From IMG/VR virus record IMGVR_UViG_3300037418_002559, positions 15,999 to 79,998 of that record: a stretch of 64,000 nucleotides of DNA. One strand, given 5' to 3'. Shown one piece after another: positions 7,620 to 53,840 of this stretch. The DNA is from a virus (lineage: Duplodnaviria > Heunggongvirae > Uroviricota > Caudoviricetes). A program made the position numbers and the translations under genes. Under the pieces are notes generated by a model. It searched no databases, was not told the origin of the DNA, and saw only the letters and a program-made list of their open reading frames with translations. Position 1 is the stretch's first letter, and every line of letters starts with the position of its first letter.

Positions 7620-7822
7620 CGCAAGTACAGATAGCCGAATTAGCGACGGCGCGCAATGCGCTCGAAGAAAAGCGCTTGGCGTATGAAGAAGCGAAACTGG
7701 TTTGGCAGCCAGTCATAGCGGCGTTCAGGTCCGCCTGCGACCACAAGAACCCAGACGGCAGCAGCGCCGTGGAGACCGGGTTTATATACGACACCTGCCT
7801 TATCTGCTCCAGGGACGTCTAG
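7616..7822 (+). CDS. hypothetical small protein
   Basis: ATGA overlap start. Confidence 0.4.
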   Translation: MTQVQIAELATARNALEEKRLAYEEAKLVWQPVIAAFRSACDHKNPDGSSAVETGFIYDTCLICSRDV

Positions 7823-7824
7823 CC

Positions 7825-7995
7825 ATGAACATGTGGACTTTGGTGAAGGCATTACTCTTGAAGGACTTGATTGGATTCTGTATCGGTGTCGCGTTCGTGG
7901 CGCTGTTCGCTCTTGTGGCTGCGCTCGTGGCTTGGCGTGAACAGGTCTGGGACAAGAAGCATCCATACGCGGTGCGAAAAGGAGAGAAGCGATGA
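7825..7995 (+). CDS. small membrane protein (one TM helix)
   Basis: Hydrophobic GFCIGVAFVALFALVAALVA segment. Confidence 0.4.
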   Translation: MNMWTLVKALLLKDLIGFCIGVAFVALFALVAALVAWREQVWDKKHPYAVRKGEKR

Positions 7996-8222
7996 CCAAG
8001 GTATGGGACTGCGTGGCGGTTAGCTGTCCGTCTTGCGACGCGGAGCCGGGGCAGCGGTGTCAACCACGCAAGCAGCGCAGCATGCGGAAGGAAGTGGATT
8101 ACCCGCACGTGGCGCGGCTCAGAAAGCACCGACGGACTGGCGCTGAGGCCCCGTTGATGGAAAACGCCAAGCTGTTCTTGCTAGCAAGATTCGTTAAAAG
8201 GAGTACGGGTGACAGAGGATGA
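7992..8222 (+). CDS. zinc-finger small protein
   Basis: CPSCDAEPGQRC. Confidence 0.4.
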   Translation: MTKVWDCVAVSCPSCDAEPGQRCQPRKQRSMRKEVDYPHVARLRKHRRTGAEAPLMENAKLFLLARFVKRSTGDRG

Positions 8223-9126
8223 GACGACCGCGCATATTCGGGCAGCGTTGGCTGGCGGTCAAGACTCTTACACGGCGCTTCACAAAGAAGTAACGAAGAT
8301 AGTGAAGCCCGTCAGCTATAAGTTCTTCCATGGCTCCGCTGAGGGCGAGGACTTCGAATGTGAAGCGGCCACGCACGTGCTTATGCGGCTAGACAAGTTC
8401 AACGGGGATTCTAGATTTTCCACTTGGGTCACGCGTGTGGCTCTTAATGAAGCACACGAAAGATTTCGTGGCAAGGCCAAGCATCATCGTGCCTTGTTGT
8501 CATACGACGCGGCGGAGGAGGAATCGGGGAAATCGCTGATAGCGACCTTCGCGGATCCAAGTGATGCGTACGCACAGATAGAAGTGAAGCAACTACTGGC
8601 CGTCGTGCTCGGCAGTCTCAGCGCGGAGAGCCAGTATCTGTTGACGGCGAAATACATGCAAGGCTACAGAAGCCAATACATGGCCGACGAATTGGGCATT
8701 ACGCTGGCCGCTTTGAAGGCACGCGTACACAGAGCACTACTGGAGGCAAGAACGATTATGGAAGGTCTTAATAATGGCACCAGTGCCCCACTGCACGCGA
8801 GCGCGCCAGCCGAGCTTGTGCCGGTCAACCCACGCAGCGGCAATCGACTAATTACGTGCGCCTGCGGCTGCAATCTGACTTGCGAGGCCACGGGACCGCG
8901 CCAGAAATACATCCCCGGTCATGCGCCGACGCCAGCGCCGGTGAAGACAGCGCGCGGCGACAAGATGAAGGCGTTCCCACACCTTGCGCCGCGCGCACAA
9001 GAAACTGTGCAGCTCAGCGTGCCGGTCAAAGCGCTGGACCACCTGCTCTCCATGCTGCCTGCCAAGACCAAGGCCAAGGCCGTGGAGTCCGCGCTGGCGG
9101 AGATGTACGCGCAGGCGGGAGAATAA
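8209..9126 (+). CDS. ECF-type RNA polymerase sigma factor with ~110-aa Cys-containing C-terminal extension
   Basis: GTG start after AAAGGAG. Region 2 FSTWVTRVALNEAHERFR resembles the FSTWLYRIARN consensus. Region 4 HTH LLTAKYMQGYRSQYMADELGITLAALKARVHRAL. C-terminal CACGCNLTC. Confidence 0.7.
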   Translation: MTEDETTAHIRAALAGGQDSYTALHKEVTKIVKPVSYKFFHGSAEGEDFECEAATHVLMRLDKFNGDSRFSTWVTRVALNEAHERFRGKAKHHRALLSYDAAEEESGKSLIATFADPSDAYAQIEVKQLLAVVLGSLSAESQYLLTAKYMQGYRSQYMADELGITLAALKARVHRALLEARTIMEGLNNGTSAPLHASAPAELVPVNPRSGNRLITCACGCNLTCEATGPRQKYIPGHAPTPAPVKTARGDKMKAFPHLAPRAQETVQLSVPVKALDHLLSMLPAKTKAKAVESALAEMYAQAGE

Positions 9127-11986: not shown

Positions 11987-12414
11987 AGCAGCTGGTATTA
12001 AAACTGTGTCCGGGGCTGGTGTGCTCCAACTTCGGGGATCAGAAGTTGTGGTCCATACGACTGGAGGATTCTGGCAACGCGCTGGCGGCGTCCAATGAAT
12101 CGGAGGAGGACGCTTGGCTGGAGATGCTTATACGGCTGCTGCGATGCGCCACCGAGGAGGAGCTGCGGGAGCAGGGACGCTCGCTGGCACGTAGTTACAA
12201 GCCGGGGCCGAGACAGGCGTCGCCGTTTCCGCCAGTGTCTCCCAGTGGGAGGCTTGGCGTATACAAACCGAAGCGGCGCACTTACGAAACGTCGGACATA
12301 AAGGAGTTACACCAGGCTATTATTAATAAAATAGCACTAACGCAGATAGCCGCATCAGGTGTAAGTGAGTCGGACTGTCTGGAATGGATCAAGCAGCAAC
12401 TGGAGGCCGTATGA
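11977..12414 (+). CDS. hypothetical protein
   Basis: ORF track entry. Confidence 0.45.
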   Translation: MRVKQLVLKLCPGLVCSNFGDQKLWSIRLEDSGNALAASNESEEDAWLEMLIRLLRCATEEELREQGRSLARSYKPGPRQASPFPPVSPSGRLGVYKPKRRTYETSDIKELHQAIINKIALTQIAASGVSESDCLEWIKQQLEAV

Positions 12415-12929
12415 GATGGAAGTGGGCTTGCCTTGGTATTGTTGGTGTCAGCGTTGCGCTGGGCGCGGCGGTCATATCGTACTGCCGCGTGGCAATTAAG
12501 CAGCAGCATAGTCAAAAGACGCTCAAGCGCTGGGCCGCTTGGCGTGTCGCGCATCCGGCGTGGAAGAAGAGCACGGCAGAGACGCTCGCGGCGCTAGACT
12601 TTACCTGTGGCCCTATCGCCACGCTCGACGCCACTACGCCAGCCACTCTAGTGCCGTTTCAGAGTGATGACAATGTGGCCGCACTTGAACCCAGTTTGCC
12701 GCTGCTACCTAAGACGGAAATTCCGTCGGAGCCGTTGTTCGCAAGCACATACGCCCCGCCGCAAAGTACCCTGCCTTATTCTGTAATACCGTTGCCCGTT
12801 CCAGTTGCGTATCCTGCGCCTTCGCCTGTGCCAGAGCCCAGCTCATTCATCTTTATGCTGAGCGGACTCGCGGCGCTGTGCGTAGGGCGTCAATCTTTCG
12901 CTTGTACTACCTCAGAAGGAGAGAAATGA
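12411..12929 (+). CDS. membrane/secreted Pro-rich protein with C-terminal PEP-CTERM-like sorting signal
   Basis: GGAGG SD then ATG at 12411. N-terminal TM WACLGIVGVSVALGAAVI. C-terminus VPEPSSFIFMLSGLAALCVGRQS. Confidence 0.55.
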   Translation: MRWKWACLGIVGVSVALGAAVISYCRVAIKQQHSQKTLKRWAAWRVAHPAWKKSTAETLAALDFTCGPIATLDATTPATLVPFQSDDNVAALEPSLPLLPKTEIPSEPLFASTYAPPQSTLPYSVIPLPVPVAYPAPSPVPEPSSFIFMLSGLAALCVGRQSFACTTSEGEK

Positions 12930-13450
12930 ACTGTTCTACCATTTTGAATACCGAATCGTTAGCCGTCTTGGTTCTGTCGATAGGCTATGCGCTACTGGCA
13001 CTTGCGTATATTGCCTGTATAGCAAGCAAGCGCAAGACCATGCTAGGCAGAGTGCGCGAGTTTCACAAGCGCTTCGACTGCTACACGGCGTCGGACGGTG
13101 TCAGCCTGCCGCCGGAAGACGTCATGGAGCTGCGACGCAGCCTGATCGCAGAGGAATTCTGGGAGCTCATGGACGCCATGGGGCGCGACGACCTCGTTGA
13201 TGTCGCCGATGCGATCGTGGATCTGCACTATGTATTGTCCGGAACGTCGCTGGTATATGGCCTACCGGAAGACGCCGTGTTCGACGAAGTGCACAGGTCC
13301 AACATGTCCAAGGCTGAGCCGGATGGCACGGTCCATCGCCGCGCCGATGGCAAGATACTGAAGGCTGCGCGCTGGACGCCGCCTGATATCGCCGGAGTCT
13401 TGGCGCGCCACGGCGGCTCGGTAATTACGCGCAAGGCGGTAAGATCGTGA
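12926..13450 (+). CDS. MazG-like nucleoside triphosphate pyrophosphohydrolase with N-terminal TM helix
   Basis: Strong AAGGAGAG SD before the ATG at 12926. TM LAVLVLSIGYALLALAYIACIA. MazG core EEFWELMDAMGRDDLVDVADAIVDLHYV. Confidence 0.7.
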   Translation: MNCSTILNTESLAVLVLSIGYALLALAYIACIASKRKTMLGRVREFHKRFDCYTASDGVSLPPEDVMELRRSLIAEEFWELMDAMGRDDLVDVADAIVDLHYVLSGTSLVYGLPEDAVFDEVHRSNMSKAEPDGTVHRRADGKILKAARWTPPDIAGVLARHGGSVITRKAVRS

Positions 13451-20201: not shown

Positions 20202-20681
20202 ATGCCACAATTGTTCTTAGACTGCGATGGTGTCGTAGCCGATTTTGATGGTTATTTTTTGTCTGTATTTGGTGTACCTCCAACGGAGGTTGAGATCACG
20301 CATGGTACGCAGTATCTGTATGCACTGTTGCAGGGGCATAAAGATTTTTACTTTAATCTGCCGCTCTTACCAGATGCAATGCAACTATACAGCGCGGTAG
20401 CGCATCTAAAACCAATCATCCTTACCGGGCATCCGAACACCAGTACACCAGCTTGGGCCATTAACCAGAAATTGCGCTGGACGGCGCACCACTTTCCAGG
20501 CGTACAGACCATCGTGTGCCCTTCTAAAGAAAAGTGCAAACACATGAAGCGCTTCGGTGATGTACTGGTGGACGATCGTTTGAAGTACATGCATTTCTGG
20601 ACTGAGGCTGGTGGAATTTTTGTGTGGCATACTTCTGCCGAAGAGTCCATTTCAAGATTGAAAGAGCTGGATATCTTATGA
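20202..20681 (+). CDS. HAD-family 5'(3')-deoxyribonucleotidase (NT5C-like)
   Basis: N-terminal FLDCDGVVADFDG (DxDGV HAD motif I), typical of NT5C. Confidence 0.75.
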   Translation: MPQLFLDCDGVVADFDGYFLSVFGVPPTEVEITHGTQYLYALLQGHKDFYFNLPLLPDAMQLYSAVAHLKPIILTGHPNTSTPAWAINQKLRWTAHHFPGVQTIVCPSKEKCKHMKRFGDVLVDDRLKYMHFWTEAGGIFVWHTSAEESISRLKELDIL

Positions 20682-21715
20682 CGGAATTACAGCTAGTAGC
20701 GCGCGAACTGGAAAAGGCTCTGTGCCCAGAGGACGTATTCGGCGTAGATATCAAACGGTCTTTCCGACAGCTAGTCAAAATCGTACACCCTGATTTCAAC
20801 AAGAATGCACTCTTCGCGCACGAGACGATGGAGCGGCTGAACGAGCTGAAGAGCATAGCCGATGCGCGGGTGGAGGCCGGCACGTGGGGAACGCGCTTGC
20901 CGTTTCCTTGGCATGAAGTAGTTGAGATTGGCGGCTACGCGGTGGCGCAGAGACCGCTAGTCGGCGACGTTGCTGACGTTTACGTAGGGATTGAATACGT
21001 CGTCAAAGTAGCCAGAAATTCAGACGACAACGATTTGATGCGAGCCGAACGCGCGGCGCTCTCGCTCCTGGCGAGCAAAGTCAACACGAAAGTAGCGGCT
21101 GCATTTCCCACGTTGCGAGGACACTTCCAGCAGAGTAATCGTGACACAAACGTACTGCGCAAAGTACCAGATGGGTTCCTGCCTGCGGAGGAAGTCCATC
21201 GTAGAATGCCGTCTGTAGACGGACGTGCTTTGGTTTGGATGTTCAAACGGCTGCTGGTGGCGCTGGAATGGGCACATCACTGCGGGCTTGTGCACGGGGC
21301 GGTGCTGCCGTCGCACGTCATGCTCTACCCGGACAACGACGGCACCACGACCAATCCGCATCCCTGCAAGCATACAGTGCGCCTGTTAGATTGGTGCTAC
21401 AGCGTAAGGTACGCGGAGCGTACGCGGTTGTCATCCTGGGTGCCAGCCTGGACTGCGCACTATCCACCCGAGTTATTATTAAAGCAATCGGTTACACCCG
21501 CGTCGGATATTTTCATGGCAGCCAGTTTGATTGCGTATCTTGCGGGAGGTATCGACGGCACAGAAGCGCCGCTGCGAGCAGTAATCGAGCGCTGCGTGCT
21601 GGCTGATGTTACAAAGCGTTATCAAACCGTGGCCCATGTATTCACGGATTGGAATGCGGCTGCCCAGCGTATATACGGGCCACCGAAATGGGTAGACTTC
21701 AACCTGCCGGAGTAA
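20678..21715 (+). CDS. J-domain fused to a protein-kinase-like domain (degenerate catalytic loop)
   Basis: J-domain FRQLVKIVHPDFNKN (HPD). Kinase-like YVVKVAR, RAERAAL, HCGLVHGAVLPSHVML (Asp replaced), RLLDWCYS. Confidence 0.65.
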   Translation: MTELQLVARELEKALCPEDVFGVDIKRSFRQLVKIVHPDFNKNALFAHETMERLNELKSIADARVEAGTWGTRLPFPWHEVVEIGGYAVAQRPLVGDVADVYVGIEYVVKVARNSDDNDLMRAERAALSLLASKVNTKVAAAFPTLRGHFQQSNRDTNVLRKVPDGFLPAEEVHRRMPSVDGRALVWMFKRLLVALEWAHHCGLVHGAVLPSHVMLYPDNDGTTTNPHPCKHTVRLLDWCYSVRYAERTRLSSWVPAWTAHYPPELLLKQSVTPASDIFMAASLIAYLAGGIDGTEAPLRAVIERCVLADVTKRYQTVAHVFTDWNAAAQRIYGPPKWVDFNLPE

Positions 21716-22426: not shown

Positions 22427-23377
22427 ATGGGCGGAGGAAGTTGGGATACAGGGCGATACACAAGCGCCAAGACTACAAGGGCTGCAAAGGGAGTGGATGA
22501 CTTCCACTACTCAAAGACAGCAAGCAAGACTCACAGCAATCTCGACCCGAAGCGCATCAGTGCCAAGCCGTTCGCCAAATTGGAAAGCCGTGATTCGGAA
22601 GAACACCCGCAGAGTAATCCGGTGCTGGTGTGCTTCGACGTTACTGGTTCTAACTATACGCGGGCCGTCGACGCGCAGAAGCGCCTGCCGAACCTGATGG
22701 AGCTGCTCGGGCGCTACTTGCCAGATCCGCAGGTTGCCGTGGCTGCGAACGACGACTACAACTCGGTTGGCGACCAGTGCCTACAGATATCTGACTTCGA
22801 GAGCGACAATCGCGTGGACGAGCACATACGCTCCATACGGTTGACCAGCGAGGGCGGAGCCAACGATGGGGAATCCTACGACCTCATGCTGTACGCGGCG
22901 GCGCGGAAGACGACAACCGACTCCGTGGAGAAGCGCGGCAAGAAAGGCTACTTCTTTATGTACGCCGACGAGCCAATCTTCACCAAGGTAAGCGCTAACG
23001 AGGTAAAGTCCGTATTCGGCGACGTAGTACAACGGGACATCCCCATTGCGGAGATCATCGAGGAGGTGCGGCGCACTTGGCAATTGTTCGTCATATACCC
23101 TATTGGCGGCTACAAGCACGCGCGCAACCAGTACGTGGAGCTGTTCGGCGAGGAGTCGGTACTGGATTTGCAGGACGCCAATCTCATCTGCGAGCTGATA
23201 GCCTCCACTGTCGGTCTGTATGAGGGGAAGGCCACACCAGTATCTTTGGTCACCGACCTAGTATCCGTTGGTCTGGACCGAAACGAGGCGTCCACCATGG
23301 TGAGCCACGCTCTTGTAAAAACACAAAGCAGTAGCACGTTATCTACATCCGGTGGAGGCAAGGCCGCACGGTTGTAG
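22427..23377 (+). CDS. von Willebrand factor A domain protein
   Basis: MIDAS-like VLVCFDVTGSN; AAGGAGAA SD. Confidence 0.6.
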   Translation: MGGGSWDTGRYTSAKTTRAAKGVDDFHYSKTASKTHSNLDPKRISAKPFAKLESRDSEEHPQSNPVLVCFDVTGSNYTRAVDAQKRLPNLMELLGRYLPDPQVAVAANDDYNSVGDQCLQISDFESDNRVDEHIRSIRLTSEGGANDGESYDLMLYAAARKTTTDSVEKRGKKGYFFMYADEPIFTKVSANEVKSVFGDVVQRDIPIAEIIEEVRRTWQLFVIYPIGGYKHARNQYVELFGEESVLDLQDANLICELIASTVGLYEGKATPVSLVTDLVSVGLDRNEASTMVSHALVKTQSSSTLSTSGGGKAARL

Positions 23378-23597
23378 CATTGTGAGTGAGCGCCTCTGCC
23401 ACGGTAGTACCTGTGGATTCTCCCCACGGCGGCGCTTTCTTGCTTTGGATGGGCGTAGAACGGTCATGCGCCCATCGGAGTTCCTTATTGTGGGAACCAG
23501 TTGCAGCGTGAACCCGAGGCGAACGGGGCGCGTCATGCTGCGCAGGCTGCACGTAGGGAACTCCGATGGTTGCATGAACAAACGGGAAGAGGACAGA

Positions 23598-24764
23598 ATG
23601 AGTAGAGCAATCTTGGTGCAGGGCTTAGCCTATGGCGATGAGTGCAAGGGCGCAACAGTGGATTTTCTTTGCCGTCAGCTACCGGTAGACTTGGTGGTGC
23701 GGTTCAATGGCGGTAGTCAGGCAGCGCACAACGTGTGTACGACGGAGGGAGCACACCACACGTTCAGCCAATTCGGCTCTGGCACGCTTGCGGGAGAACA
23801 CGTGCGGACGCATCTTTCGCGCTTCATGCTGGTTGACCCATTGACGATGATGAACGAAGCGGCTGCTTTGCGTGAACAACTGGGAGTGCAGCCTTGGCGC
23901 GGTTTAACGGTGGATCCTCGATGCGTAATCATCACACCATTCCACAAGCAGGTGAATCGACTGCGCGAGATGGCACGCGGATTGGCGCGGCACGGCAGCT
24001 GCGGGATGGGTGTAGGCGTGGCACGCGAATGGCAGTTGAAATATGGTGACGCCGTGCTGTACGCGGAGGATGTGCTTGACACCCAGAAGGTGACGGAGAA
24101 GCTACGATTCTTGCTGAACCTTGCTTGCCAAGAGTTTGGTGTAACGCTGATGAGCTACAGTGAGATTAATCTGCGTGAGCTTGCCTACACCTACGCGAAG
24201 TGGCCGGTTGTGCTCGACACGATGCCCAAGTCCGATTTGGCGGTCTTCGAAGGTGCGCAGGGCGTCCTGTTGGATGAAACGCACGGCGAAGCGCCTTATC
24301 ACACATGGACGGATTGTACGTTCAACAATGCGGACACGCTTTGCGCAGAGGCCGGTATTACGGATCGCTTCAGAGTGGGTTGCGCGCGTGCCTACCTTAC
24401 GCGACACGGCGCTGGGCCATTGCCTGGCGCTTTAGCGCACGACCCTGCTTGGCACCCAGCGGAGCCGCACAATGTCACCAATGAGTTCCAAGGACCGTTT
24501 CGCGTAGCACCAATGAACTTCTTCTTGCTACGCAAGGCAATGAGCTACATCGGCAGCCTAGATTGCCTAGCAATCAGCCATCTGGATGTGTACGGCGGCG
24601 GCGTACTGGACACGCGTTTGATGCACGATCTGCTGGGCGTATTCGAGCAAGAGCTGGCTACGCCTATTGGAATCAAGGCTTGGGGGCCTACCGCACTCAA
24701 CCGTGAGTTCACGCCAGCGTGGACCACGGCTTGGGCAAGGATCTTAGAAGAGGCTGCGCAATGA
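23598..24764 (+). CDS. adenylosuccinate synthetase family protein, short divergent form (PurZ-like candidate)
   Basis: GDECKGA corresponds to PurA GDEGKGK. VVRFNGGSQAAHN, FEGAQGVLLD, RAYLTRHGAGP. 388 aa versus about 430 for bacterial PurA. Confidence 0.75.
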   Translation: MSRAILVQGLAYGDECKGATVDFLCRQLPVDLVVRFNGGSQAAHNVCTTEGAHHTFSQFGSGTLAGEHVRTHLSRFMLVDPLTMMNEAAALREQLGVQPWRGLTVDPRCVIITPFHKQVNRLREMARGLARHGSCGMGVGVAREWQLKYGDAVLYAEDVLDTQKVTEKLRFLLNLACQEFGVTLMSYSEINLRELAYTYAKWPVVLDTMPKSDLAVFEGAQGVLLDETHGEAPYHTWTDCTFNNADTLCAEAGITDRFRVGCARAYLTRHGAGPLPGALAHDPAWHPAEPHNVTNEFQGPFRVAPMNFFLLRKAMSYIGSLDCLAISHLDVYGGGVLDTRLMHDLLGVFEQELATPIGIKAWGPTALNREFTPAWTTAWARILEEAAQ

Positions 24765-48230: not shown

Positions 48231-48267
48231 TAGCCAGCCTACCAAACTAAATTCAAACCCCTATTGC

Positions 48268-48304
48268 CGTCCACCCAGTTCAACGGGTGGACGTCGTAGT
48301 TTCT
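48268..48304 (+). terminator. rho-independent terminator
   Basis: 9-bp stem CGTCCACCC-agttcaac-GGGTGGACG followed by TCGTAGTTTCT. Separates the upstream genes from the cassette starting at 48318. Confidence 0.6.
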
Positions 48305-48317
48305 GGAACGGAGATAA

Positions 48318-49163
48318 ATGAAAAATTTAACGCTCATCATACCCACGCATGGCCGGGTGGGAAAGCAAACCACGCTCCAAGCATTACCGACCAAACTTCA
48401 GGCCGAGGTCATTCTCGTTACTTCTCTGCCAGGAGAAGCGAAAGAGCTGCGCGCCCTTTACCCTAAGAACGAGGTAGCCGTAGCCAAGGGGACTACGTCT
48501 ATCGCTACCAAGCGGCACTGGATTATGCAGAACATTAAAGGCCGCATGCTGTTCATGCTGGACGACGACATAGCCTTCTTTGAGCGCTGCCCGCCCAAGT
48601 GGCGCGTGTGGGAGCCGCACCGCAAGGCCTACGCCTTGGCCAAGGAGGCCCCGGCCGACGCTGCCTTGATGAAGCGCCTGTATCCGCAGGACGCCAAGCT
48701 GCTCTCTTTGTTTCAGGACATGGATAAACGGGTGGCTTCACACAAACCAGCCATGATTGGTATAGCGCATCGGCGGCACAGCGATAAGAAGCAGGAATCA
48801 TGGGAAGTCAACGCGCGCATGATGTACGCATTCGGCGTAGATCCGGCCATTTACAAGGAAGAGAAAATTCGGTTCGATCGTGTAGGACTTCGTGAGGATT
48901 TCCACGTTGTTCTAAGCATGCTGCGCAGAGGACACGAGTGTCATAATTATCTGGAGCTACTGAACAATGAGTATGGCTCGTTCGGCGCTGCTGGTGGGTG
49001 CAGTGGTGAACGCTCCATGGAGTACAGCAACGAGCAGTGCTACGCGCTGCAGAAGCTGCACCCGGAGTTCGTCAAAGTTGTGGAGAGAGATTACAAAGGC
49101 TCCTTTCCACGCAAAGAGGTAGTCGTAGCCTGGAAGAAAGCATTTGAAAGTAGCAAGCAATGA
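48318..49163 (+). CDS. GT-A-fold (DXD) glycosyl/phospho-group transferase
   Basis: GGAG SD; LTLIIPTHGR (GT2-like N-terminus); MLFMLDDDIAFF (DXD). Confidence 0.6.
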   Translation: MKNLTLIIPTHGRVGKQTTLQALPTKLQAEVILVTSLPGEAKELRALYPKNEVAVAKGTTSIATKRHWIMQNIKGRMLFMLDDDIAFFERCPPKWRVWEPHRKAYALAKEAPADAALMKRLYPQDAKLLSLFQDMDKRVASHKPAMIGIAHRRHSDKKQESWEVNARMMYAFGVDPAIYKEEKIRFDRVGLREDFHVVLSMLRRGHECHNYLELLNNEYGSFGAAGGCSGERSMEYSNEQCYALQKLHPEFVKVVERDYKGSFPRKEVVVAWKKAFESSKQ

Positions 49164-49858
49164 TCATAGACCATAAAATTGTACGTAATAGCGGCTCCAC
49201 GCTGGAGCCGTGCATCTATAAGAGCGGCCCAGGTACAGTCGCGCAAGGTAGGAAGATGCTGGCGTATCCACACGTATTTGCGCCTGTGCTCGGTATTACT
49301 GACCATGGCTACTGTATGCCACGTCTGAATGAACCGTCCAGTGTCTCTCTTTCTGCAGCGCTGGATCGATTAGTCGTACTCTGGAACTCGACGGACATTG
49401 GACTGCTTGTCGCAACGCGTGCGCAACACCACGAAACGCAAGTAGCGCCTTTGGCTACTGAGCCGCTCCTGCGGCGCGCGCTGGAGCAGTGGCACGCACG
49501 TGTGCAGACAGTACACGGTACTGCTGTCAACGTTGTGCACGGTGATCCAACACTTGAGAATTACATGTACAATGGTGTCTGGCTGGACCCCAGTACGCGC
49601 CCGTTGCCTTTGGAAGCTGAGTTGGATGGCGGCAAGTTACTACAGTCTTACTTTGGCTACGGCCATTGTGGCACTACGGAAGAACTGCAAGCGATCAGAA
49701 AATTCATTCACACATGTGGACTGAATCTAGATTTGTGCGCGTATTACCTGGTCACACACTTGGTACGCTTGTACCGTGTTCAGCCGCAGGCCCAGTTCTG
49801 GGCAGTTACAGTAGCCGAAACGCTTGAGGAAAGAATGGAGGATTTTAAATGCAAGTAG
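49160..49858 (+). CDS. APH/choline-kinase-fold small-molecule kinase
   Basis: Brenner motif VVHGDPTLENYMY (HGDxxxxN) then WLDPS; ATGA overlap with the upstream gene. Confidence 0.6.
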   Translation: MIIDHKIVRNSGSTLEPCIYKSGPGTVAQGRKMLAYPHVFAPVLGITDHGYCMPRLNEPSSVSLSAALDRLVVLWNSTDIGLLVATRAQHHETQVAPLATEPLLRRALEQWHARVQTVHGTAVNVVHGDPTLENYMYNGVWLDPSTRPLPLEAELDGGKLLQSYFGYGHCGTTEELQAIRKFIHTCGLNLDLCAYYLVTHLVRLYRVQPQAQFWAVTVAETLEERMEDFKCK

Positions 49859-50583
49859 TAATCTTAGCTGCTGGGCGTGGCATACGCTTCGGCTCGGATA
49901 TTGTGCCGAAGATACTGCATACAGCCAGAGGCAAAACGTTGTTCAGACATGCCTTGGAGCAAGCTGCGGAGGTAAGCCGAACGCCAGTAGTCGTATGCAT
50001 GGCTGGGCTGGAAGAACGTCTGTCCAAAAATACACCCGTAAGTATTTATCCGTTGTTCAGCCCTATCCACGTCACACAGCAAGGTGCAGCGCTGTCGTTG
50101 CTTACGGCGGCTGGTCGTATGCAAGATGATGAGCCACTACTTGTCATGGACTGCGATACTATCTTTGCAAGTGGTACTATGATGCGCTTCGCTGACTTCG
50201 CTACGCGTGCATTCGCTGCTGGAAAAAACTCGGCTGTACTGACCTTCGTTCCAAACGACGACAGTGCGCGCTACAGCTTCGCAGCTGTCGATACGCAGGA
50301 AGATACGCCGTTCCCACACGTCGCCATGGTAGTGGAAAAGGAGCGTATTAGTAACGTGGCCACTTGCGGCGTCCATGCCTTCGCGTCTTGGACTGTCGTT
50401 CGGCAGGCCATTTATGAAATGGTTATTTTACAGACCATGACGAACGGAGAGTATTACTTAGCCCCTGCGCACAACAACATCGTTGGTACGACAGCCATGC
50501 TGATCGTTGCTGACCAGTTCAACCACGTTGGTACACCTGCTGAATTGGAGGCCTATGAGCGAGCAGTTTCCGCGACTCGATGA
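49849..50583 (+). CDS. sugar-phosphate nucleotidyltransferase (GlmU/IspD/RmlA-like NTP_transferase)
   Basis: N-terminal VVILAAGRGIRFGSDIVPKILHTARGKTL signature; 10-nt overlap with the kinase gene. Confidence 0.65.
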   Translation: MQVVILAAGRGIRFGSDIVPKILHTARGKTLFRHALEQAAEVSRTPVVVCMAGLEERLSKNTPVSIYPLFSPIHVTQQGAALSLLTAAGRMQDDEPLLVMDCDTIFASGTMMRFADFATRAFAAGKNSAVLTFVPNDDSARYSFAAVDTQEDTPFPHVAMVVEKERISNVATCGVHAFASWTVVRQAIYEMVILQTMTNGEYYLAPAHNNIVGTTAMLIVADQFNHVGTPAELEAYERAVSATR

Positions 50584-51418
50584 GTTTGTTCGGTTTGTAA
50601 ATGAACGTTGGAGCATACACCTGAAGCGCACAGAAGGTCTGCCGGCACCATGGACGAAGGATCCTATACTACAAAAGTACCGCTTTACAAATGTTCGCCG
50701 AGAAGATGACCGTGTTACTCGCTGGATACATGAGCAGTGGCTACGCGACCGCGCGACCGACGAGCTGTGGCTCGCTTTCTACGTTAGTCGCGTATTCAAT
50801 AAGCCGGAAACATTGGCCGCAATTGGTTGGCCGTTACCATGGAGCGCTGCTACGAAGAAACGAGTGTATACCGCCATTAAGAAGAGGCAAGCAAATGGTG
50901 AGCGGGTCTTCAACGCAGCCTACATCGTATCATCACATGGGCGCGCGACTTGCTCTAAGACTGAATACTACATGGAGATCTTCGACGAACTGTGGGCGCG
51001 ACGTAAAGTTGTTCGGCCCGTTCACGGAGATAGTCTGGAATCATTTTTCAGTAGATTGTGCGAACAGCCCGGTATCGGCGGCTTTATGGGAGCTCAAGTA
51101 GTGGCTGACATAAAAGCGTACGAGCCACTATACGGCTCTGACGACCTGTACACGTTTGCACGTAGCGGCCCTGGTAGTCGGCGTGGCATGCATTGGGTGC
51201 GTGGAACGGAGCCACTGCCGCGGTACAACGAGAGTGCATGGCAGGCAGACTTACTACTACTTATGGCTGCAGTGCGGCCTAAGCTCAAAGTATCGCTGGA
51301 TGCTCAGAATCTACAGAATTGCCTGTGCGAGTTCAGTAAGTACTGCAAGGTGAAGTTCAACGGCGGACGGGCTAAACAGATATTCCGGCCGAGTGTAGCT
51401 GCTTACACCAGCCTATAA
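50555..51418 (+). CDS. putative aGPT-Pplase-like DNA base hypermodification enzyme
   Basis: GGAGG SD 3 nt before the ATG. N-terminal WSIHLKRTEGLPAPWTKDPILQKYRFTNVRREDDRVTRW matches my recollection of the aGPT-Pplase family. The call rests on context and memory. Confidence 0.45.
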   Translation: MSEQFPRLDEFVRFVNERWSIHLKRTEGLPAPWTKDPILQKYRFTNVRREDDRVTRWIHEQWLRDRATDELWLAFYVSRVFNKPETLAAIGWPLPWSAATKKRVYTAIKKRQANGERVFNAAYIVSSHGRATCSKTEYYMEIFDELWARRKVVRPVHGDSLESFFSRLCEQPGIGGFMGAQVVADIKAYEPLYGSDDLYTFARSGPGSRRGMHWVRGTEPLPRYNESAWQADLLLLMAAVRPKLKVSLDAQNLQNCLCEFSKYCKVKFNGGRAKQIFRPSVAAYTSL

Positions 51419-51440
51419 TTAAAGTAAACAAGGAGAAGTA
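51411..51440 (+). promoter_or_regulatory. internal promoter-like GCCTATAATTAA element
   Basis: TATAAT at 51414-51419, overlapping the upstream stop. AAGGAGAAG SD then ATG at 51441. Confidence 0.4.
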
Positions 51441-52511
51441 ATGTTTAGTTATAAAGCACATGATGTAAATGAAGCGCTCTCATTCGGCCTGCAGCATTTA
51501 CTGCGTGAAGGCATCGAAGAAACCAGTCGTGTGGGTCCAGTGCTCGTAGCACCCGGCCCTGTGTGTATTGAATATGTAAACCCAAGACAGCGAGTTTTGT
51601 ATAGTCCAACACGTGACGCGAACCACGTATTCCATCTTATGGAATCACTGTGGCTGCTGTCTGGTAGCAACGAGATTGAATTTCCGGTATTCTTTAACAA
51701 AGCCTACGCACAGTTCAGCGACGACGGAACTACGATATGGGACAGCTACGGTTGGCGCTGGCGGCAGTTCTTTGGCTATGATCAATTGGAAGAAATCGTC
51801 GCAGAGCTAAAGAGGAATCCCAGCTCAAGGCGCTGCGTGCTGAGTATGTGGAATGGCGCAGAATGGTCGGCAGGCAATGGTCCTGATCCGTCTTGGGCGC
51901 GTGAAGACGGGCTTTGGATGCAAAGCGATCTTAGTGTAGCTTGCAATGGTGGCAAAGCGGTCCCCTGCAACACGCATGCGTATTTCGCTGTACGTGGTGG
52001 TAAGCTCAACATGACGGTCATGAATCGCTCCAACGATGCTATGTGGGGCTGCTTCGGCGCGAATGCCGTTCACTTCAGCTTACTGCTGGAATACATGGCT
52101 GTGCGTGTTGGGTTGCCTATGGGTAGTTACTTCCAGTTCACAAACAACCTGCACACCTACACCGATAAATTCAGTGTAGACATGCTCAATACAATAGAGC
52201 ACGAATGCGATACGGTTGGCGCGCTGCCGCAACCTGGCCCTGCGATTGAACCTGGATTTGACGAGGATCTGCGCCTATTCATGCCTTGGGCACTGTCAGT
52301 TATACGTTCGACGCCGGGGGATACTTTGCGCGCGCTGAACGTACCACAATTAGAAACACCATTCATGTATTCCGTAGTAGCTCCTATGTTTTTGTTCTGG
52401 GTGTATCGTAAGTGGAAAGACGAGTACAGCAGCTCTATTTGCTTGAATGGTATTGATGCGCCAGACTGGCAACGGGCTTGTGAAGAATGGAAGGAGCGTA
52501 GACGTAAGTGA
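51441..52511 (+). CDS. ThyA-family pyrimidine C5 hydroxymethylase/methylase (likely dUMP hydroxymethylase)
   Basis: MESLWLLSGSNE, DQLEEIVAELKRNPSSRRCVLSMWN, catalytic PC in VPCNTHAYFAVRGGKLNMTVMNRSNDAMWG, TNNLHTY. 356 aa with a C-terminal extension. Confidence 0.8.
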   Translation: MFSYKAHDVNEALSFGLQHLLREGIEETSRVGPVLVAPGPVCIEYVNPRQRVLYSPTRDANHVFHLMESLWLLSGSNEIEFPVFFNKAYAQFSDDGTTIWDSYGWRWRQFFGYDQLEEIVAELKRNPSSRRCVLSMWNGAEWSAGNGPDPSWAREDGLWMQSDLSVACNGGKAVPCNTHAYFAVRGGKLNMTVMNRSNDAMWGCFGANAVHFSLLLEYMAVRVGLPMGSYFQFTNNLHTYTDKFSVDMLNTIEHECDTVGALPQPGPAIEPGFDEDLRLFMPWALSVIRSTPGDTLRALNVPQLETPFMYSVVAPMFLFWVYRKWKDEYSSSICLNGIDAPDWQRACEEWKERRRK

Positions 52512-53095
52512 AAGAGGTTCTGCAATTCATCATGGAAGGTGGTAGTGTGCAGCGCTACCACACGCGTCCGGGCATAAGGCCGGACACAAACGCGCACCAC
52601 AGCCATGGCGTCCTGATGCTGGCCAGTCTGCTGGCCGGTCAGAATGAGCAAACAGGCTGCACGCAGGCTAGTGTTAATTTACTCATGGCATGTGCTACGC
52701 ATGATTTGGCGGAGCAACTGGCCTGCGATGTAAGCGCGCCAGCCAAGCGGTTGCTCGGTATACGTGAGCTTCTGCATGACTTGGAGTCCAACGAGCTGAG
52801 AACGCATCTGCTCGACTACGAGCAGCACCTTACAGAAGACGAGCGTACTATTCTGCAGCTTGCCGATTGCTTTGATGGTATGATGTATTGCTGTCGAGAG
52901 CTTGCTCTGGGTAATAGAAATGCCTTGCTCATCTGGCGTCGGTTTTGCAGTTACATAACTAAGATTACAGCACAACACGACATTGAGTTTGAAATTGGGC
53001 TGCGCGCCAGTGTGATGTTTGAATCCATCAAAGAAATCTACAGAGAGGTTACAAGTGTCACAGGACCAGAATTCGACATCTTCAAAGGCAAATGA
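52508..53095 (+). CDS. HD-domain phosphohydrolase, YfbR/OxsA/DatZ-like 5'-deoxynucleotidase
   Basis: RYHTRP...NAHHSHGVLMLASLLA...CATHDLAEQ...DCFDGMMY. GTGA overlap with the ThyA-like stop. Confidence 0.7.
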   Translation: MKEVLQFIMEGGSVQRYHTRPGIRPDTNAHHSHGVLMLASLLAGQNEQTGCTQASVNLLMACATHDLAEQLACDVSAPAKRLLGIRELLHDLESNELRTHLLDYEQHLTEDERTILQLADCFDGMMYCCRELALGNRNALLIWRRFCSYITKITAQHDIEFEIGLRASVMFESIKEIYREVTSVTGPEFDIFKGK

Positions 53096-53327
53096 TGTGC
53101 AGGTTGGTGGTACGCATTACCAAAATGCTGTTGGAACTTGCCCTCATTGTGGCGGCCCCATCCAACATTGGGATCTGTTCGGTAAAATGCCGTACTTAGT
53201 TGGGCAGGTCTGCCGCTACGTACTACGCTTCCAAGGCAAGAATGGCAAGGAAGACATAGAAAAGGCTGGGCACTTCCTTCAGAAATTGAAGGAAGTCTAC
53301 TTCCCAGAGCAAGAAAAGAAGCCTTAA
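53019..53327 (+). CDS. small Zn-ribbon protein (VGGTHYQ...CPHCGG...YVLRFQGK), possibly DUF3310-like
   Basis: The track gives a TTG start at 53019. A GTG at 53097 after AAAGG is the likelier start and overlaps the HD stop. Confidence 0.45.
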   Translation: MNPSKKSTERLQVSQDQNSTSSKANDVQVGGTHYQNAVGTCPHCGGPIQHWDLFGKMPYLVGQVCRYVLRFQGKNGKEDIEKAGHFLQKLKEVYFPEQEKKP

Positions 53328-53333
53328 ACGACA

Positions 53334-53380
53334 AAAGACCCTCTCCTAAGCCCACAAAAGGGGCCAAGGAGAGGGTCTTT
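53334..53380. terminator. bidirectional intrinsic terminator between convergent modules
   Basis: 14-bp perfect stem AAAGACCCTCTCCT / AGGAGAGGGTCTTT with an inner GCCC/GGGC stem. Lies between the TAA at 53325-53327 (+) and the lysin stop at 53379-53381 (-). T-rich tails on both strands. Confidence 0.7.
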
Positions 53381-53840
53381 ATGCTTGCAATAAAGCTGCG
53401 TGCGCATGCAGGATAGAAGTGCAGGTTGCGCTCCGCGCCGGGTCCGTGCTCCACGTCATTGACACTTGTCGTAGGAACTCTTCAGGCGTGCCGGCCACGA
53501 GCGCCGCCGCGTAGTGCGGGTAGCTTGGTGCCAACCGTTTGAGAGTGTCCATCCGGTCGGCAAAGCAGGCCGACAGTGACGGGTAGTTTATAAAGTCGGC
53601 CTGTACAACCGTCCAGTGTCCGTCCAAGAACTCTCGTGTTGGCAGGCTGACAGTGGCGTAGACCGGGTGGCTGTGCTGCTTCATGCCGAACCCGTTGTTG
53701 TAATCCAGGAAGAGGCGCGAGGTTCCCCACGCGCTCTCCACCATCATCTCGCAGGCCTGCGCATTGGGGAATAGCACCCCAGAGGCGCAGGCCTGCTCGT
53801 AGGCGCGTCGTAGCGCCGCTTGTTGCTGCTGTGTTATCAT
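53379..53840 (-). CDS. endolysin, mannosyl-glycoprotein endo-beta-N-acetylglucosaminidase (FlgJ-type glucosaminidase) domain
   Basis: ESAWGTSRLFLDYNNGFGMK matches the glucosaminidase signature ESGWG.S.L...NN.FGIK. Confidence 0.7.
   Translation of the reverse strand: MITQQQQAALRRAYEQACASGVLFPNAQACEMMVESAWGTSRLFLDYNNGFGMKQHSHPVYATVSLPTREFLDGHWTVVQADFINYPSLSACFADRMDTLKRLAPSYPHYAAALVAGTPEEFLRQVSMTWSTDPARSATCTSILHAHAALLQA

Follow-up and report, generated by a model that had tools for sequence, protein, structure and literature searches.

A phage gene cassette predicted to glycosylate 5-hydroxymethyluracil in DNA

In the base J system of kinetoplastids (JBP1/2 and JGT), thymine in DNA is acted on by a dioxygenase, at a small fraction of sites and in a regulatory role. 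Among phages, PaMx11 and M6 make hmdU before replication and tailor it on the DNA polymer, using a P-loop 5-hmdU DNA kinase and a clade-2 amino-acid:DNA transferase, followed by FAD/acetyltransferase or PLP/radical-SAM enzymes (Lee et al. 2018, 2022; PMC5889632, PMC8989533). In the arabinosyl-5-hydroxycytosine pathway of RB69, DLP3 and HY126, the bifunctional nucleotidyltransferase (NTase)/APH-like kinase AfhE acts with glycosyltransferases (PMC13326640). Phage GT-A enzymes of the kind encoded here glycosylate 5hmC in DNA, with a structure resembling the base-J glucosyltransferase; a metagenome survey also placed GT-A genes beside ThyS genes and APH phosphotransferases, where the ThyS-linked thymine glycoside was not chemically defined (Pyle et al. 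2024, 10.1101/2023.12.21.572611).

The gene inventory presented here covers a 64-kb window, the whole stretch that was analysed, of a metagenome contig of about 100 kb. No homologue of the PaMx11/M6 tailoring enzymes was found within this window. In place of that set, it encodes a GT-A glycosyltransferase (GT), an APH-fold kinase and an NTase.

Organization of the cassette

The cassette consists of seven overlapping plus-strand genes at 48318-53327, with one hairpin on either side (Table 1). Every open reading frame of the seven-gene plus-strand operon described in the original prediction was recovered in its place, and the ATG that it gave as the start of gene 4 is also used in the gene calling of the identical JGI protein P0022. 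Gene junctions are overlaps of 4, 10, 29, 4 and up to 77 nt, with a single 22-nt gap. The start of gene 7 is uncertain, and an alternative GTG near 53097 is possible. All seven genes keep their order in metagenomic relatives at 48-80% protein identity; because the identical gene set and order recur in this way, the arrangement is not a product of chance.

Table 1. Features of the cassette and possible accessory genes elsewhere in the window
Feature	Position	Strand	Size	Assignment
Gene 1	48318-49163	+	281 aa	TAGT-family GT-A glycosyltransferase; predicted DNA 5-hydroxymethyluracil (hmU) glycosyltransferase
Gene 2	49160-49858	+	232 aa	Small stand-alone APH/choline-kinase-fold kinase; predicted to phosphorylate a sugar or sugar phosphate as input for gene 3
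Gene 3	49849-50583	+	244 aa	Predicted sugar-1-phosphate nucleotidylyltransferase making NDP-sugar donor
Gene 4	50555-51418 (ORF open from 50507)	+	287 aa	PF18723 protein (HMUDK_hel, formerly aGPT-Pplase clade 1)
Gene 5	51441-52511	+	356 aa	ThyA-family enzyme; predicted dUMP 5-hydroxymethylase
Gene 6	52508-53095	+	195 aa	HD-domain YfbR-like protein; predicted deoxynucleotide hydrolase helping to exclude canonical dT nucleotides
Gene 7	53019-53327	+	<=102 aa	DUF3310 protein; possible nucleotide-binding or kinase accessory
Upstream hairpin	48263-48300	+		Possible terminator of preceding transcription unit
Downstream hairpin	53334-53380	either	14-bp stem	Stem AAAGACCCTCTCCT / AGGAGAGGGTCTTT
MazG-like NTP pyrophosphohydrolase	12878-13450	+		Possible accessory outside cassette (Pfam PRA-PH, E = 1.4e-13)
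NT5C/HAD-like phosphatase	20202-20681	+		Possible accessory outside cassette (Pfam NT5C, E = 4.5e-6)

The upstream hairpin has a GC-rich stem of 9 bp (CGTCCACCC / GGGTGGACG, 48268-48276 and 48285-48293) and a loop of 8 nt, with a folding energy of -20.1 kcal/mol (z = -2.4 against shuffles), and is followed by a weak T tail, TCGTAGTTTCT. For the downstream hairpin, the values were -34.4 kcal/mol (z = -7.4) on the plus strand and -37.6 kcal/mol (z = -7.35) on the minus strand, with short U-runs of 3 and 4. It is flanked by convergent genes, gene 7 (+) and a lysin gene at 53379-53840 (-), and is likely a bidirectional terminator between them. Both hairpins that had been put forward as strong terminators are real. 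However, neither was called by a terminator scan and both lack a canonical T-run, so the label is fair for the downstream hairpin only.

Predicted activities of the core and tailoring genes

Genes 4-7 would form a core module and genes 1-3 a tailoring module. [quoted passage not shown] The protein is a Cys-dependent member of the superfamily of amino-acid:DNA transferases and probably acts on hmU in DNA.

Gene 5 matched Pfam Thymidylat_synt (E = 1.1e-19) and phrog_5131 (E = 1e-92). As expected of the ThyA-family enzyme with a catalytic Cys that had been predicted, it keeps Cys146, together with Arg166, Asp169 and Asn177, and has Ala in place of Leu143 (E. coli numbering). Under the residue rules of the family, Asn177 marks dUMP enzymes, Asp177 dCMP enzymes and D169N 5-hydroxy-dCMP synthases (PMC13326640); RB69 gp48 and the enzyme of another locus, L094, fit these rules in our alignment. 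Judged by sequence, the active-site residues of gene 5 are of the uracil type. Its nearest cultured relatives are the M6, PaMx11 and phiRSL1 homologues (37-38% identity), and it scored 66 bits against the cut-off of 327 of the NCBIfam thymidylate synthase equivalog. The Asn177-type site, the score far under this cut-off and the closeness to M6, PaMx11 and phiRSL1 thus favour an hmdU-forming role. Position 143, however, is acidic (Asp/Glu) in known hydroxymethylases, PaMx11, phiRSL1 and PhiJL001 but Ala in gene 5, so that gene 5 may be a methylase instead of the predicted hydroxymethylase.

The HD protein encoded by gene 6 matched Pfam YfbR-like (E = 7e-9, 36 bits against a cut-off of 25.9), and its closest solved relative was E. 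coli YfbR (E = 1.5e-5), in agreement with the YfbR-type identity predicted for it; no DatZ match was found. It has homologues in PaMx11 gp52 and PhiJL001 gp25, as gene 7 has in PaMx11 gp53 and PhiJL001 gp26. Gene 7 matched Pfam DUF3310 (E = 4e-5) with 24.0 bits, exactly at the cut-off of 24, as well as 'nucleotide kinase' families in PHROG. Its earlier description as a small Zn-ribbon protein undersells it, because DUF3310 is also the C-terminal part (residues 122-184) of the T7 gp1.7 nucleotide kinase.

The original prediction cast the MazG-like and NT5C-like proteins outside the cassette in putative roles as destroyers of dTTP and dTMP. The nearest solved relative of the MazG-like protein was DR2231 (E = 1.9e-16), which is a dUTPase; a MazG-like protein of this type would be as compatible with providing dUMP as with removing dTTP. 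The NT5C-like protein displayed weak PDB similarity only, to 5'(3')-deoxyribonucleotidases, and no similarity to RB69 gp51. Either a dNMP or a sugar phosphate may serve as its substrate.

In the tailoring module, gene 1 matched Pfam TAGT (PF20691; E = 2.7e-13, 50.8 bits against a cut-off of 27.5) and phrog_842 (E = 2e-41). Its DXD motif, LDDD, is also present in PhiJL001 gp22 and in phiRSL1 ORF234 and ORF237, the last being 34% identical to gene 1. Profile searches with gene 2 produced no Pfam or PHROG match. Its AF2 model (pLDDT 95.6) matched APH/choline-kinase-fold kinases only in Foldseek (probability up to 1.0, TM 0.5-0.6), which upholds the fold predicted earlier, and the matches were spread evenly over sugar, antibiotic and choline kinases. 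The gene 2 family comprises 424 cluster representatives, nearly all of 210-270 aa, with H127, G128, D129, N134 and D143 (HGDPTLEN and a downstream Asp) invariant. A weak profile match linked gene 2 to the kinase part of RB69 AfhE (hhalign probability 28%), and the motifs HGDPxxxN, DP[RS] and K[LV]L..GY are common to gene 2, this part of AfhE and phiRSL1 ORF236. Among distant relatives, that in L094, a locus that lacks PF18723, lies beside an NTase and a ThyA homologue of dCMP type; here a separate P-loop thymidylate-kinase-like gene (weak match) lies beside the ThyA homologue; another, in L095, is fused to a MazG-like NTP pyrophosphohydrolase, with a HAD-like gene adjacent.

Gene 3 matched the Pfam models NTP_transf_3 (E = 2.1e-13) and NTP_transferase (E = 1e-5). 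Its best PDB match was the GlmU uridylyltransferase domain (E = 4e-7), with the motif LAAGxGxR...PK, and its nearest NCBIfam neighbours were GlmU, AglF and MurU, all far under equivalog cut-offs. It carries a sugar-1-phosphate nucleotidyltransferase signature. This signature, the APH-fold kinase and the motifs common to AfhE and ORF236 favour a role in NDP-sugar supply. The cassette contains no phosphatase, isomerase or epimerase that could hint at the identity of the sugar.

Module exchange and competing explanations

The counterparts of genes 4-7 are PaMx11 gp50-53 and, in PhiJL001, gp19 and gp24-26. A syntenic sister phage (L009/L019) shares the flanks (DUF2786, 56% identity; ThyA, 62%), and the slot of the GT, kinase and NTase is filled there by GATase-ADDT (an amino-acid:DNA transferase), HMUDK_HMUD1 (a P-loop 5-hmdU DNA kinase) and an acetyltransferase. 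Modules of this type are proven to hypermodify thymidine. Co-occurrence was counted across 80 IMG/VR viral loci with PF18723, which are related to one another, so the counts are not independent. A ThyA homologue was present in 75 of the 80, a TAGT-like GT in 27, and a P-loop kinase and/or AADT likewise in 27; GT and P-loop kinase/AADT were together in none, and 26 loci had no recognisable tailoring gene. The APH-kinase occurred in seven loci, with the NTase in the same seven and a GT in each, and 20 GT-bearing loci had neither kinase nor NTase. The GT therefore does not depend on either for its action on DNA, in keeping with a role for the pair in supplying the donor. The PF18723 protein is a steady companion of the core genes under either tailoring chemistry.

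From the gene set, folds, active-site residues, synteny and co-occurrence we infer, with moderate confidence, that hmdU is made at the nucleotide level and then glycosylated on DNA with a phage-made NDP-sugar. The ThyA homologue would convert dUMP to 5-hydroxymethyl-dUMP, the HD protein, perhaps with the distant MazG-like and NT5C-like enzymes, would bias the nucleotide pool against dT, and the DUF3310 protein may assist phosphorylation of the new nucleotide, before the family-A polymerase of the phage would incorporate hmdU into DNA. The APH-fold kinase would phosphorylate a sugar or sugar phosphate, the NTase would form an NDP-sugar from sugar 1-phosphate, with a UDP-sugar as the likeliest form, and the TAGT GT-A enzyme, working on the DNA polymer, would move the sugar onto the 5-hydroxymethyl group of hmU. 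This would give a base-J-like O-glycosyl-hmU that shields the genome from host nucleases. Several points count against this reading: PF18723 without a P-loop kinase matches no established scheme, although such a kinase may be encoded elsewhere in the genome, the ThyA homologue has Ala143, the kinase-AfhE similarity is weak, the substrate is not readable from the kinase fold, and the cassette lacks sugar-defining enzymes.

The uracil-type ThyA residues, the aGPT-Pplase clade of gene 4 and the module slot give indirect support to the core of the original prediction, in which hmdU arises at the level of nucleotides and the DNA later receives a group activated by the phage. In a LicA/LicC-style version of such decoration, the kinase would yield a phospho-alcohol (phosphocholine, phosphoethanolamine or glycerol phosphate) or phospho-sugar, the NTase a CDP-alcohol, and the group would be joined to hmU-DNA through a phosphodiester. 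The best fold matches of gene 2 include choline and ethanolamine kinases, IspD and MobA-type cytidylyl/guanylyl-transferase models also match the NTase N-terminus, and thymidine hypermodifications with phosphate are known in SP-15, YerA41 and Carin-5 (PMC12686479). Yet the cassette has neither a LicD nor a CDP-alcohol phosphotransferase, its sole transferase being a DXD GT-A enzyme of TAGT type, a family that glycosylates DNA, full-length NTase matches are the sugar-1-phosphate uridylyltransferases GlmU and AglF, with MurU also near, and the kinase matches are even across substrate classes. The LicD-like branch of the prediction is weakened by these assignments, and we regard a phospho-alcohol as unlikely. 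It is quite unlikely that activation occurs on DNA, with the APH-fold kinase replacing the P-loop 5-hmdU DNA kinase to phosphorylate hmU, the NTase perhaps nucleotidylating the phosphate into a better leaving group, the PF18723 Cys enzyme swapping in a nucleophile like the amino-acid:DNA transferases, and the GT decorating the product or leftover hmU. PF18723 does not need the APH-fold kinase, since it occurs with a GT alone in 20 loci and without a recognisable tailoring gene in 26. The kinase, for its part, invariably accompanies an NTase with the sugar-1-phosphate signature and has relatives in L094, where PF18723 is absent, and the kinase, NTase and GT logic has direct precedent in AfhE.

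The fusion to a MazG-like protein in L095, the position of the kinase beside ThyA homologues in two unrelated contexts and the GT-only loci, which show that host donors can suffice, would be consistent with a kinase acting on a nucleotide, such as hmdUMP or its hydroxymethyl group, and a GT using a host UDP-sugar. However, APH-fold kinases phosphorylate hydroxyl groups rather than phosphates, the strict pairing with the NTase would be left without explanation, L094 has its own thymidylate-kinase-like gene, and in its DUF3310 protein the cassette already has a relative of part of a nucleotide kinase; we consider such a role very unlikely. Least probable of all would be a system unrelated to DNA, with an ordinary thymidylate synthase for replication and a GT, kinase and NTase modifying a host envelope glycan or phage protein. 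Ala143, in place of the acidic residue of proven hydroxymethylases, would agree with it, as would the finding that most GT-A contigs have no neighbouring base-modification gene (Pyle et al. 2024). Against this, PF18723 is specific to thymidine-hypermodifying phages and has the NTase on one side and the ThyA homologue on the other, the sister phage carries an AADT/DNA-kinase module as a one-for-one substitute for the triple, GT and AADT modules are mutually exclusive across the 80 loci, and the ThyA homologue, far under the synthase cut-offs, clusters with enzymes of hmdU-using phages.

Comparison with described systems

The locus shares with PaMx11 and M6 the PF18723, ThyA-type dUMP hydroxymethylase, HD and DUF3310 genes in the same order, and the predicted sequence of events, hmdU before replication and tailoring on the polymer, is also theirs (PMC5889632, PMC8989533). 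With the AfhE/AfhF pathway it shares the overall logic, in which a ThyA homologue makes the modified nucleotide, a phage NTase and APH-like kinase make an NDP-sugar and DNA glycosyltransferases act on the polymer, as well as catalytic-region motifs common to both kinase families. The base in that pathway is cytosine, however, with N177D and D169N in ThyA where the window has Asn177 and Asp169. The NTase and kinase are fused there in that order, whereas here they are separate genes; that pathway also requires an HAD phosphatase and an arabinose-5-phosphate isomerase, has transferases of GT-B type and lacks a PF18723 protein. No similarity between the NTases of the two systems was detectable by BLASTP.

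By gene content, the nearest cultured-phage counterpart is ORF228-238 of the Ralstonia jumbo phage phiRSL1 (NC_010811), where a ThyA homologue (38% identity), PF18723, an NTase, an APH-domain protein and three glycosyltransferases resembling TAGT lie in one block. None of the papers searched was found to describe this cluster or phiRSL1 DNA chemistry. It is much larger, with extra glycosyltransferases, a sulfotransferase, an APS-kinase-like P-loop protein and an HAD/PNKP-type phosphatase, and its kinase lies within a 477-aa protein instead of standing alone.

Pfam TAGT is shared with the TET/5mYOX-associated GT-A enzymes, of which metavirome members were shown to glycosylate 5-hydroxymethylpyrimidine in DNA (Burke et al. 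2021, PMC8256090; Pyle et al. 2024). The hydroxymethyl group is post-replicative in those systems, placed by a dioxygenase on 5mC, whereas it is predicted here to be pre-replicative, from a ThyA-type enzyme on uracil. The predicted product class, O-glycosylated 5-hydroxymethyluracil in DNA, equals that of base J, and the transferase is of GT-A type in both; here, in contrast, the nucleotide pool would be the source of hmU, probably throughout the genome, with a donor sugar predicted to be phage-made.

The view that an APH-fold kinase, an NTP-transferase and a GT are combined in no system described so far was overstated, given the precedents of the AfhE pathway (PMC13326640), the survey of Pyle et al. 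and the analogous thymine-type cluster of phiRSL1. The kinase/NTase and GT logic is already known from cytosine systems, and its thymine-side use would be what is new. If our reading is true, the cassette would be a thymine-side version of known phage DNA glycosylation, with a chemically undescribed product.

Layout and setting of the cassette

The cassette consists of seven plus-strand ORFs whose junctions overlap or nearly abut. The start of gene 4 is TTG 50507 in the ORF listing and ATG 50555 in the identical JGI protein P0022. The upstream hairpin has a GC-rich stem of 9 bp (-20.1 kcal/mol, z = -2.4), and the downstream hairpin a stem of 14 bp (-34.4 kcal/mol, z = -7.4). The latter separates gene 7 from a convergent lysin gene (Glucosaminidase domain), and is therefore probably a bidirectional terminator. 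A long T-run is absent from both hairpins, and neither was called by a consensus terminator scan.

The window is clearly phage DNA. It encodes a family-A DNA polymerase, an ATP-dependent ligase, an SNF2 helicase, a primase-like DUF3854/DUF5906 protein, a PD-(D/E)XK nuclease, a sigma-like factor and a tail-fibre-like ORF of 1125 aa. The cassette had no match, and no near-identical relative, in a megablast search of 50,697 phage records, indicating a lineage without a close cultured relative. A PEP-CTERM sorting motif, unusual among phage genes, was found near the C-terminus of an ORF that overlaps the start of the MazG-like gene (Pfam E = 5.9e-5); this motif may hint at the host group.

Positions of the cassette genes and of other ORFs discussed in the text (window coordinates)
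Feature	Position	Strand	Length (aa)	Assignment
Gene 1	48318-49163	+	281	TAGT-like glycosyltransferase
Gene 2	49160-49858	+	232	APH-fold kinase
Gene 3	49849-50583	+	244	Nucleotidyltransferase (NTase)
Gene 4	50555-51418	+	287	PF18723 protein
Gene 5	51441-52511	+	356	ThyA homologue
Gene 6	52508-53095	+	195	Predicted YfbR-like HD protein
Gene 7	53019-53327	+	<=102, start uncertain	DUF3310 protein
PEP-CTERM ORF	12384-12929	+	181	
MazG-like gene	12878-13450			MazG-like protein
NT5C-like gene	20202-20681	+		NT5C-like, weak match
ORF 3' of NT5C-like gene	20624-21715	+	363	
PurA homologue	23352-24764	+	470	PurA homologue

The probable modified base and the nucleotide-metabolism genes

Gene 5 belongs to the Pfam thymidylate synthase family (E = 1e-19) and is 26% identical to E. 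coli ThyA. Its score against the NCBIfam thymidylate synthase equivalog was 66.6 bits, with a cut-off of 327, and it was not classed as a canonical ThyA equivalog. Rules tested in a 2026 paper assign ThyA homologues with Asn177 to dUMP and those with Asp177 to dCMP (E. coli numbering); hydroxymethylation goes with loss of the bulky Leu143, and D169N marks 5-hydroxy-dCMP synthases (PMC13326640). In gene 5, Cys146, Arg166, Ser167 and Tyr94 are conserved and Asp169 and Asn177 are retained, the Asn at position 177 being found in both MAFFT and HMMER alignments. The controls behaved as the rules predict, with D169N and N177D in RB69 gp48 and N177D in the enzyme of an unrelated phage (metagenomic locus L094). 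A 5-hydroxy-dCMP synthase of the RB69 gp48 type was rejected on Asp169 and Asn177. The nearest cultured relatives of gene 5 are the phiRSL1, PaMx11 and M6 enzymes (37-38% identity), and PaMx11 and M6 tailor 5-hydroxymethyldeoxyuridine (hmdU) in DNA (PMC8989533). Together, the residues, the low ThyA score and these relatives make dUMP the very probable substrate and hmdUMP the probable product. The product is only probable because position 143 in the gene 5 clade is Ala, small but not acidic, where the PaMx11, phiRSL1 and PhiJL001 enzymes have Asp; loss of Leu143, usually by change to Asp or Glu, lets water in.

The original prediction held that dTMP and dTTP are destroyed by the HD enzyme together with an NT5C and a MazG protein encoded elsewhere in the window. 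Gene 6 scored 36 bits against the Pfam YfbR-like family (cut-off 25.9), and its best solved relative was YfbR (E = 1.5e-5), with the HD motif aligned; it is predicted to be a YfbR-like HD 5'-deoxynucleotidase. The MazG-like gene is real, with a Pfam match, and is nearest to DR2231, a dUTPase. An enzyme of this kind could serve to supply dUMP just as well as to remove dTTP. For the NT5C-like gene the family match is weak, and it is unrelated to the RB69 sugar phosphatase gp51. Directly 3' of it, the 363-aa ORF gave weak sub-threshold matches to DnaJ and protein-kinase families. Gene 7 carries DUF3310 with a score exactly at the Pfam cut-off. This is the only domain it has in common with the T7 gp1.7 nucleotide kinase, where it occupies residues 122-184, and BLASTP between the two gave E = 0.14.

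The presence of a PurA homologue prompted a different reading, in which the HD and MazG-like genes would belong to a Z-genome (2-aminoadenine) pathway. This was rejected because the HD protein is nearest to YfbR and not to DatZ, which was not among the PDB matches of gene 6, and because the PurA homologue keeps the Asp of GDE.KG, with bacterial PurA and the 'PurA-like' genes of Mycobacterium cluster C phages (36-38% identity) as its nearest relatives. The homologue, which has an N-terminal extension of ~80 aa, also fell far under both the PurA and PurZ equivalog cut-offs, scoring 38.6 bits against the PurZ model where 300 are required.

A constant core and a swappable slot for predicted tailoring genes

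Genes 4-7 correspond one-to-one with PaMx11 gp50-53, and with PhiJL001 gp19 and gp24-26. In PaMx11, experimentally defined tailoring enzymes are encoded just upstream of gp50-53: the glycine:DNA transferase gp46, the flavin lyase gp47, the acetyltransferase gp48 and the P-loop 5-hmdU DNA kinase gp49 (PMC8989533). A tblastn search with gp49, the kind of kinase that provides amino-acid:DNA transferases with 5-PmdU, gave no match in the 64-kb window of the ~100-kb contig, and no homologue of gp46, a clade-2 transferase, was found in the window. A sister phage (L009, 3699-7004, and L019; ENA ERZ27245386 / IMGVR_UViG_3300028666_000026) has flanks related to those of the window (identities of 56% for a DUF2786 protein, 37% for a 555-aa protein, 62% for ThyA and 65% for DUF3310). 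Where the window has the glycosyltransferase (GT), kinase and NTase, the sister phage encodes a 620-aa GATase-ADDT fusion, a 5-hmdU DNA kinase (PF18748), an acetyltransferase and a 136-aa unknown protein. The resulting amino-acid-type thymidine hypermodification is probably uncharacterised too.

The same pattern was seen across 80 IMG/VR loci encoding PF18723, scanned with HMMs built from these proteins. A ThyA homologue was present at 75/80 loci, a TAGT-like GT at 27, and a P-loop kinase and/or amino-acid:DNA transferase (AADT) at another 27; no locus had a GT together with a P-loop kinase or AADT (Fisher's test p = 7e-7, which is no true probability as the loci are interrelated). The APH-fold kinase occurred at seven loci and the NTase at the same seven, all of them with the GT. 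The slot swap and the co-occurrence place the GT/kinase/NTase triple in the functional slot of post-replicative tailoring of 5-hydroxymethyluracil (hmU). The remaining 26 loci, in the set L011-L090 (e.g. L024, L030, L038, L043, L049, L060, L065), encode PF18723, ThyA, HD and DUF3310 proteins, with no GT, P-loop kinase or AADT recognised by the HMMs within ~9 kb. Either tailoring at these loci relies on genes of a different type, or the core produces a modification by itself.

Gene 4 matched PF18723 (HMUDK_hel) over almost its whole length (145.6 bits, cut-off 25), and its homologues are labelled 'aGPT-Pplase clade 1' by JGI. Its fold is helix-hairpin-helix, DNA-glycosylase-like. Residues C258 and E259 are invariant among 22 sequences, and in alignment C258 coincides with the PaMx11 gp46 Cys; the active-site Cys is essential in AADTs (PMC8989533). 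Assignment of gene 4 as an AADT (PF18724, formerly aGPT-Pplase clade 2) was rejected, since PF18723 was the sole match at E <= 0.1. The protein was present at every thymidine-hypermodification locus examined here, alongside glycosyl-type, amino-acid-type or unrecognised tailoring modules, and so is more than a helical add-on to the P-loop kinase. Its fold and its aligned Cys are those of an enzyme attacking C6 of a 5-substituted uracil in DNA. In lysate reconstitution, the first transfer step did not need the M6 homologue gp55, which the minimal in-vitro reaction yielding the first intermediate did not include (PMC8989533). Our best guess is that the PF18723 protein acts on hmU at the DNA level in a way shared by all these pathways.

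Gene 1 matched the Pfam TAGT family (PF20691, TET-associated glycosyltransferase, GT-A) over residues 6-216 (50.8 bits, cut-off 27.5), and also phrog_842 (E = 2e-41). The DXD motif for metal and NDP-sugar binding is present, with LDDD common to the phiRSL1 and PhiJL001 homologues. From its slot and co-occurrence, gene 1 is predicted to transfer a sugar onto a 5-hydroxymethylpyrimidine in DNA. When 48318-50583 was compared with four metagenomic relatives (L004, L006, L018, L040), the GT (72-80% identity) was far better conserved than the adjoining kinase (48-61%) or NTase (41-58%).

Gene 2 had no match in Pfam (APH and Choline_kinase included), PHROG or NCBIfam. A structure model built with 21 homologues (pLDDT 95.6) had only APH-fold kinases as neighbours: choline kinase, macrolide and spectinomycin phosphotransferases, fructosamine-3-kinase, and maltose and methylthioribose kinases. 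The model and alignment show a bilobal kinase fold, an HxDxxxxN catalytic loop and a metal-binding Asp, with H127, G128, D129, N134 and D143 (the HGDPTLEN loop and the downstream Asp) invariant across the 21 homologues. A profile search of 1.84 billion representatives yielded a family of 424 clusters, nearly all stand-alone proteins of 210-270 aa. No match to the kinase was found by tblastn against phages or by a pattern-based search of IMG/VR; the latter negative reflects over-strict patterns, as homologues are present in the loci fetched via PF18723.

Gene 3 scored 51.2 bits against NTP_transf_3 (cut-off 27) and 25.4 bits against NTP_transferase (cut-off 21.2). The GlmU uridylyltransferase domain was its best solved relative, and the LAAGxGxR...PK signature is present; at the N-terminal G-x-G-x-R...PK signature, gene 3 LAAGRGIRFGSDIVPK aligns to GlmU LAAGKGTRMYSDLPK. 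The nearest NCBIfam models were GlmU (47 bits), AglF (39) and MurU (30), all far under their equivalog cut-offs (367, 400 and 250, respectively), and gene 3 is not assigned as the equivalent of any of these named enzymes.

Members of the kinase family also occur away from this lineage. One distant member, in the unrelated phage L094, has a dCMP-type ThyA homologue on one side and an NTase on the other, and another forms a fusion with a MazG-like domain, with a HAD-like gene after it (L095). Pairing of the kinase family with NTases and pyrimidine-modifying ThyA homologues thus recurs beyond the lineage. The L094 row (4114-8680 of a 15.3-kb Logan ERR4450733 contig) runs from the ThyA homologue (N177D) through the kinase and NTase to a 403-aa protein without a family, a PP-binding (acyl-carrier-like) protein and a dCMP deaminase, and may represent cytosine hypermodification involving a carrier protein. 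In L095 (1642-3247 of a 3.4-kb JGI 3300014873 contig), the MazG-like pyrophosphohydrolase/kinase fusion adjoins a C5 DNA methylase gene.

As 20 GT loci lack both the kinase and the NTase, the most plausible role for these two genes is provision of a special donor, not action on DNA. Among the large ORFs of the window, a search for a sugar isomerase, epimerase or HAD phosphatase found only the distant NT5C-like gene. Alternatively, the pair would activate the 5-hydroxymethyl of hmU on DNA by phosphorylation and then nucleotidylation, with no free NDP-sugar, and a nucleophile would then replace the NDP-type leaving group through the PF18723 Cys enzyme, the GT-A enzyme or both. We regard this as very improbable; if true, the chemistry would be of an 'inverted' glycosyltransferase-like kind, with the DNA base serving as activated donor. 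Under the preferred model, a phage-made NDP-sugar would be transferred by the GT to hmU in DNA.

Relation to known systems

If this prediction is true, the lineage carries glycosylated 5-hydroxymethyluracil, a base-J-like modification, by a thymidylate-synthase route. No paper on the chemical characterisation of glycosylated hmU made by the ThyA route in a phage was found in the literature searched. The kinase/NTase/GT trio is compact and expressible in E. coli, making the donor sugar and product directly testable, as is the function of the PF18723 protein. The sister phages, glycosyl and amino-acid type, offer a natural experiment on tailoring-module swap over a constant hmU core. New DNA glycosides would bear on restriction and CRISPR resistance, phage therapy design and enzymatic DNA labelling.

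The TAGT and aGPT-Pplase predictions are said to originate with Iyer et al. 2013. Outside that work, the literature searched contained no paper defining a product of the cassette type. The original prediction knew of no system using an APH-fold kinase, an NTP-transferase and a GT-A enzyme, and recent literature has partly overtaken it. The general association was already on record: in a contig survey, Pyle et al. found GT-A genes beside ThyS genes and APH phosphotransferases, and related clusters are present in the public genomes of phiRSL1 and PhiJL001.

The larger thymine-type cluster of the cultured jumbo phage phiRSL1 (NC_010811, 161844-171498, ORF228-238) comprises a ThyA homologue, PF18723, three TAGT-like GTs, an NTase, a 477-aa protein with an APH domain, a sulfotransferase, an APS-kinase-like protein and a HAD/PNKP phosphatase. 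Such a gene set points to a sulfated glycan on thymine; no description of the cluster was found in the literature searched. In PhiJL001, gp23 (locus L002, 7473-8072), an Nmad5 protein (nucleotide-modification-associated domain 5), lies between a TAGT-like GT and the ThyA homologue. No kinase or NTase was found at that site, making this a simpler GT-type cluster in a cultured phage.

The closest published precedent for the kinase and NTase as a donor pair is the arabinosyl-5-hydroxycytosine pathway, in which HY126 AfhE, RB69 gp52:53 and DLP3 gp82 are bifunctional, with an NTase domain and an APH-like kinase domain, and the AfhE-type enzyme makes UDP-arabinose for DNA glycosyltransferases (PMC13326640). 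The alignment of the kinase family with RB69 gp52 was weak (hhalign E = 6e-4, probability 28%), as was that with the APH part of phiRSL1 ORF236; the HGDPxxxN, DP[RS] and K[LV]L..GY motifs were covered. When the NTase and kinase were compared directly by BLASTP with RB69 gp53/gp52 and phiRSL1 ORF236, matches were absent or marginal, and the kinases are linked by profile comparison and motifs only.

The predicted system belongs to an established type, phage pyrimidine hypermodification by a ThyA homologue and on-DNA transferases. Unlike characterised thymidine systems, it uses a GT-A glycosyltransferase and a dedicated kinase/NTase pair, without a P-loop kinase or clade-2 transferase in the 64-kb window. 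Compared with characterised glycosylation systems, the base, the fold of the GT and the domain organisation are different, and PF18723 is present in addition.
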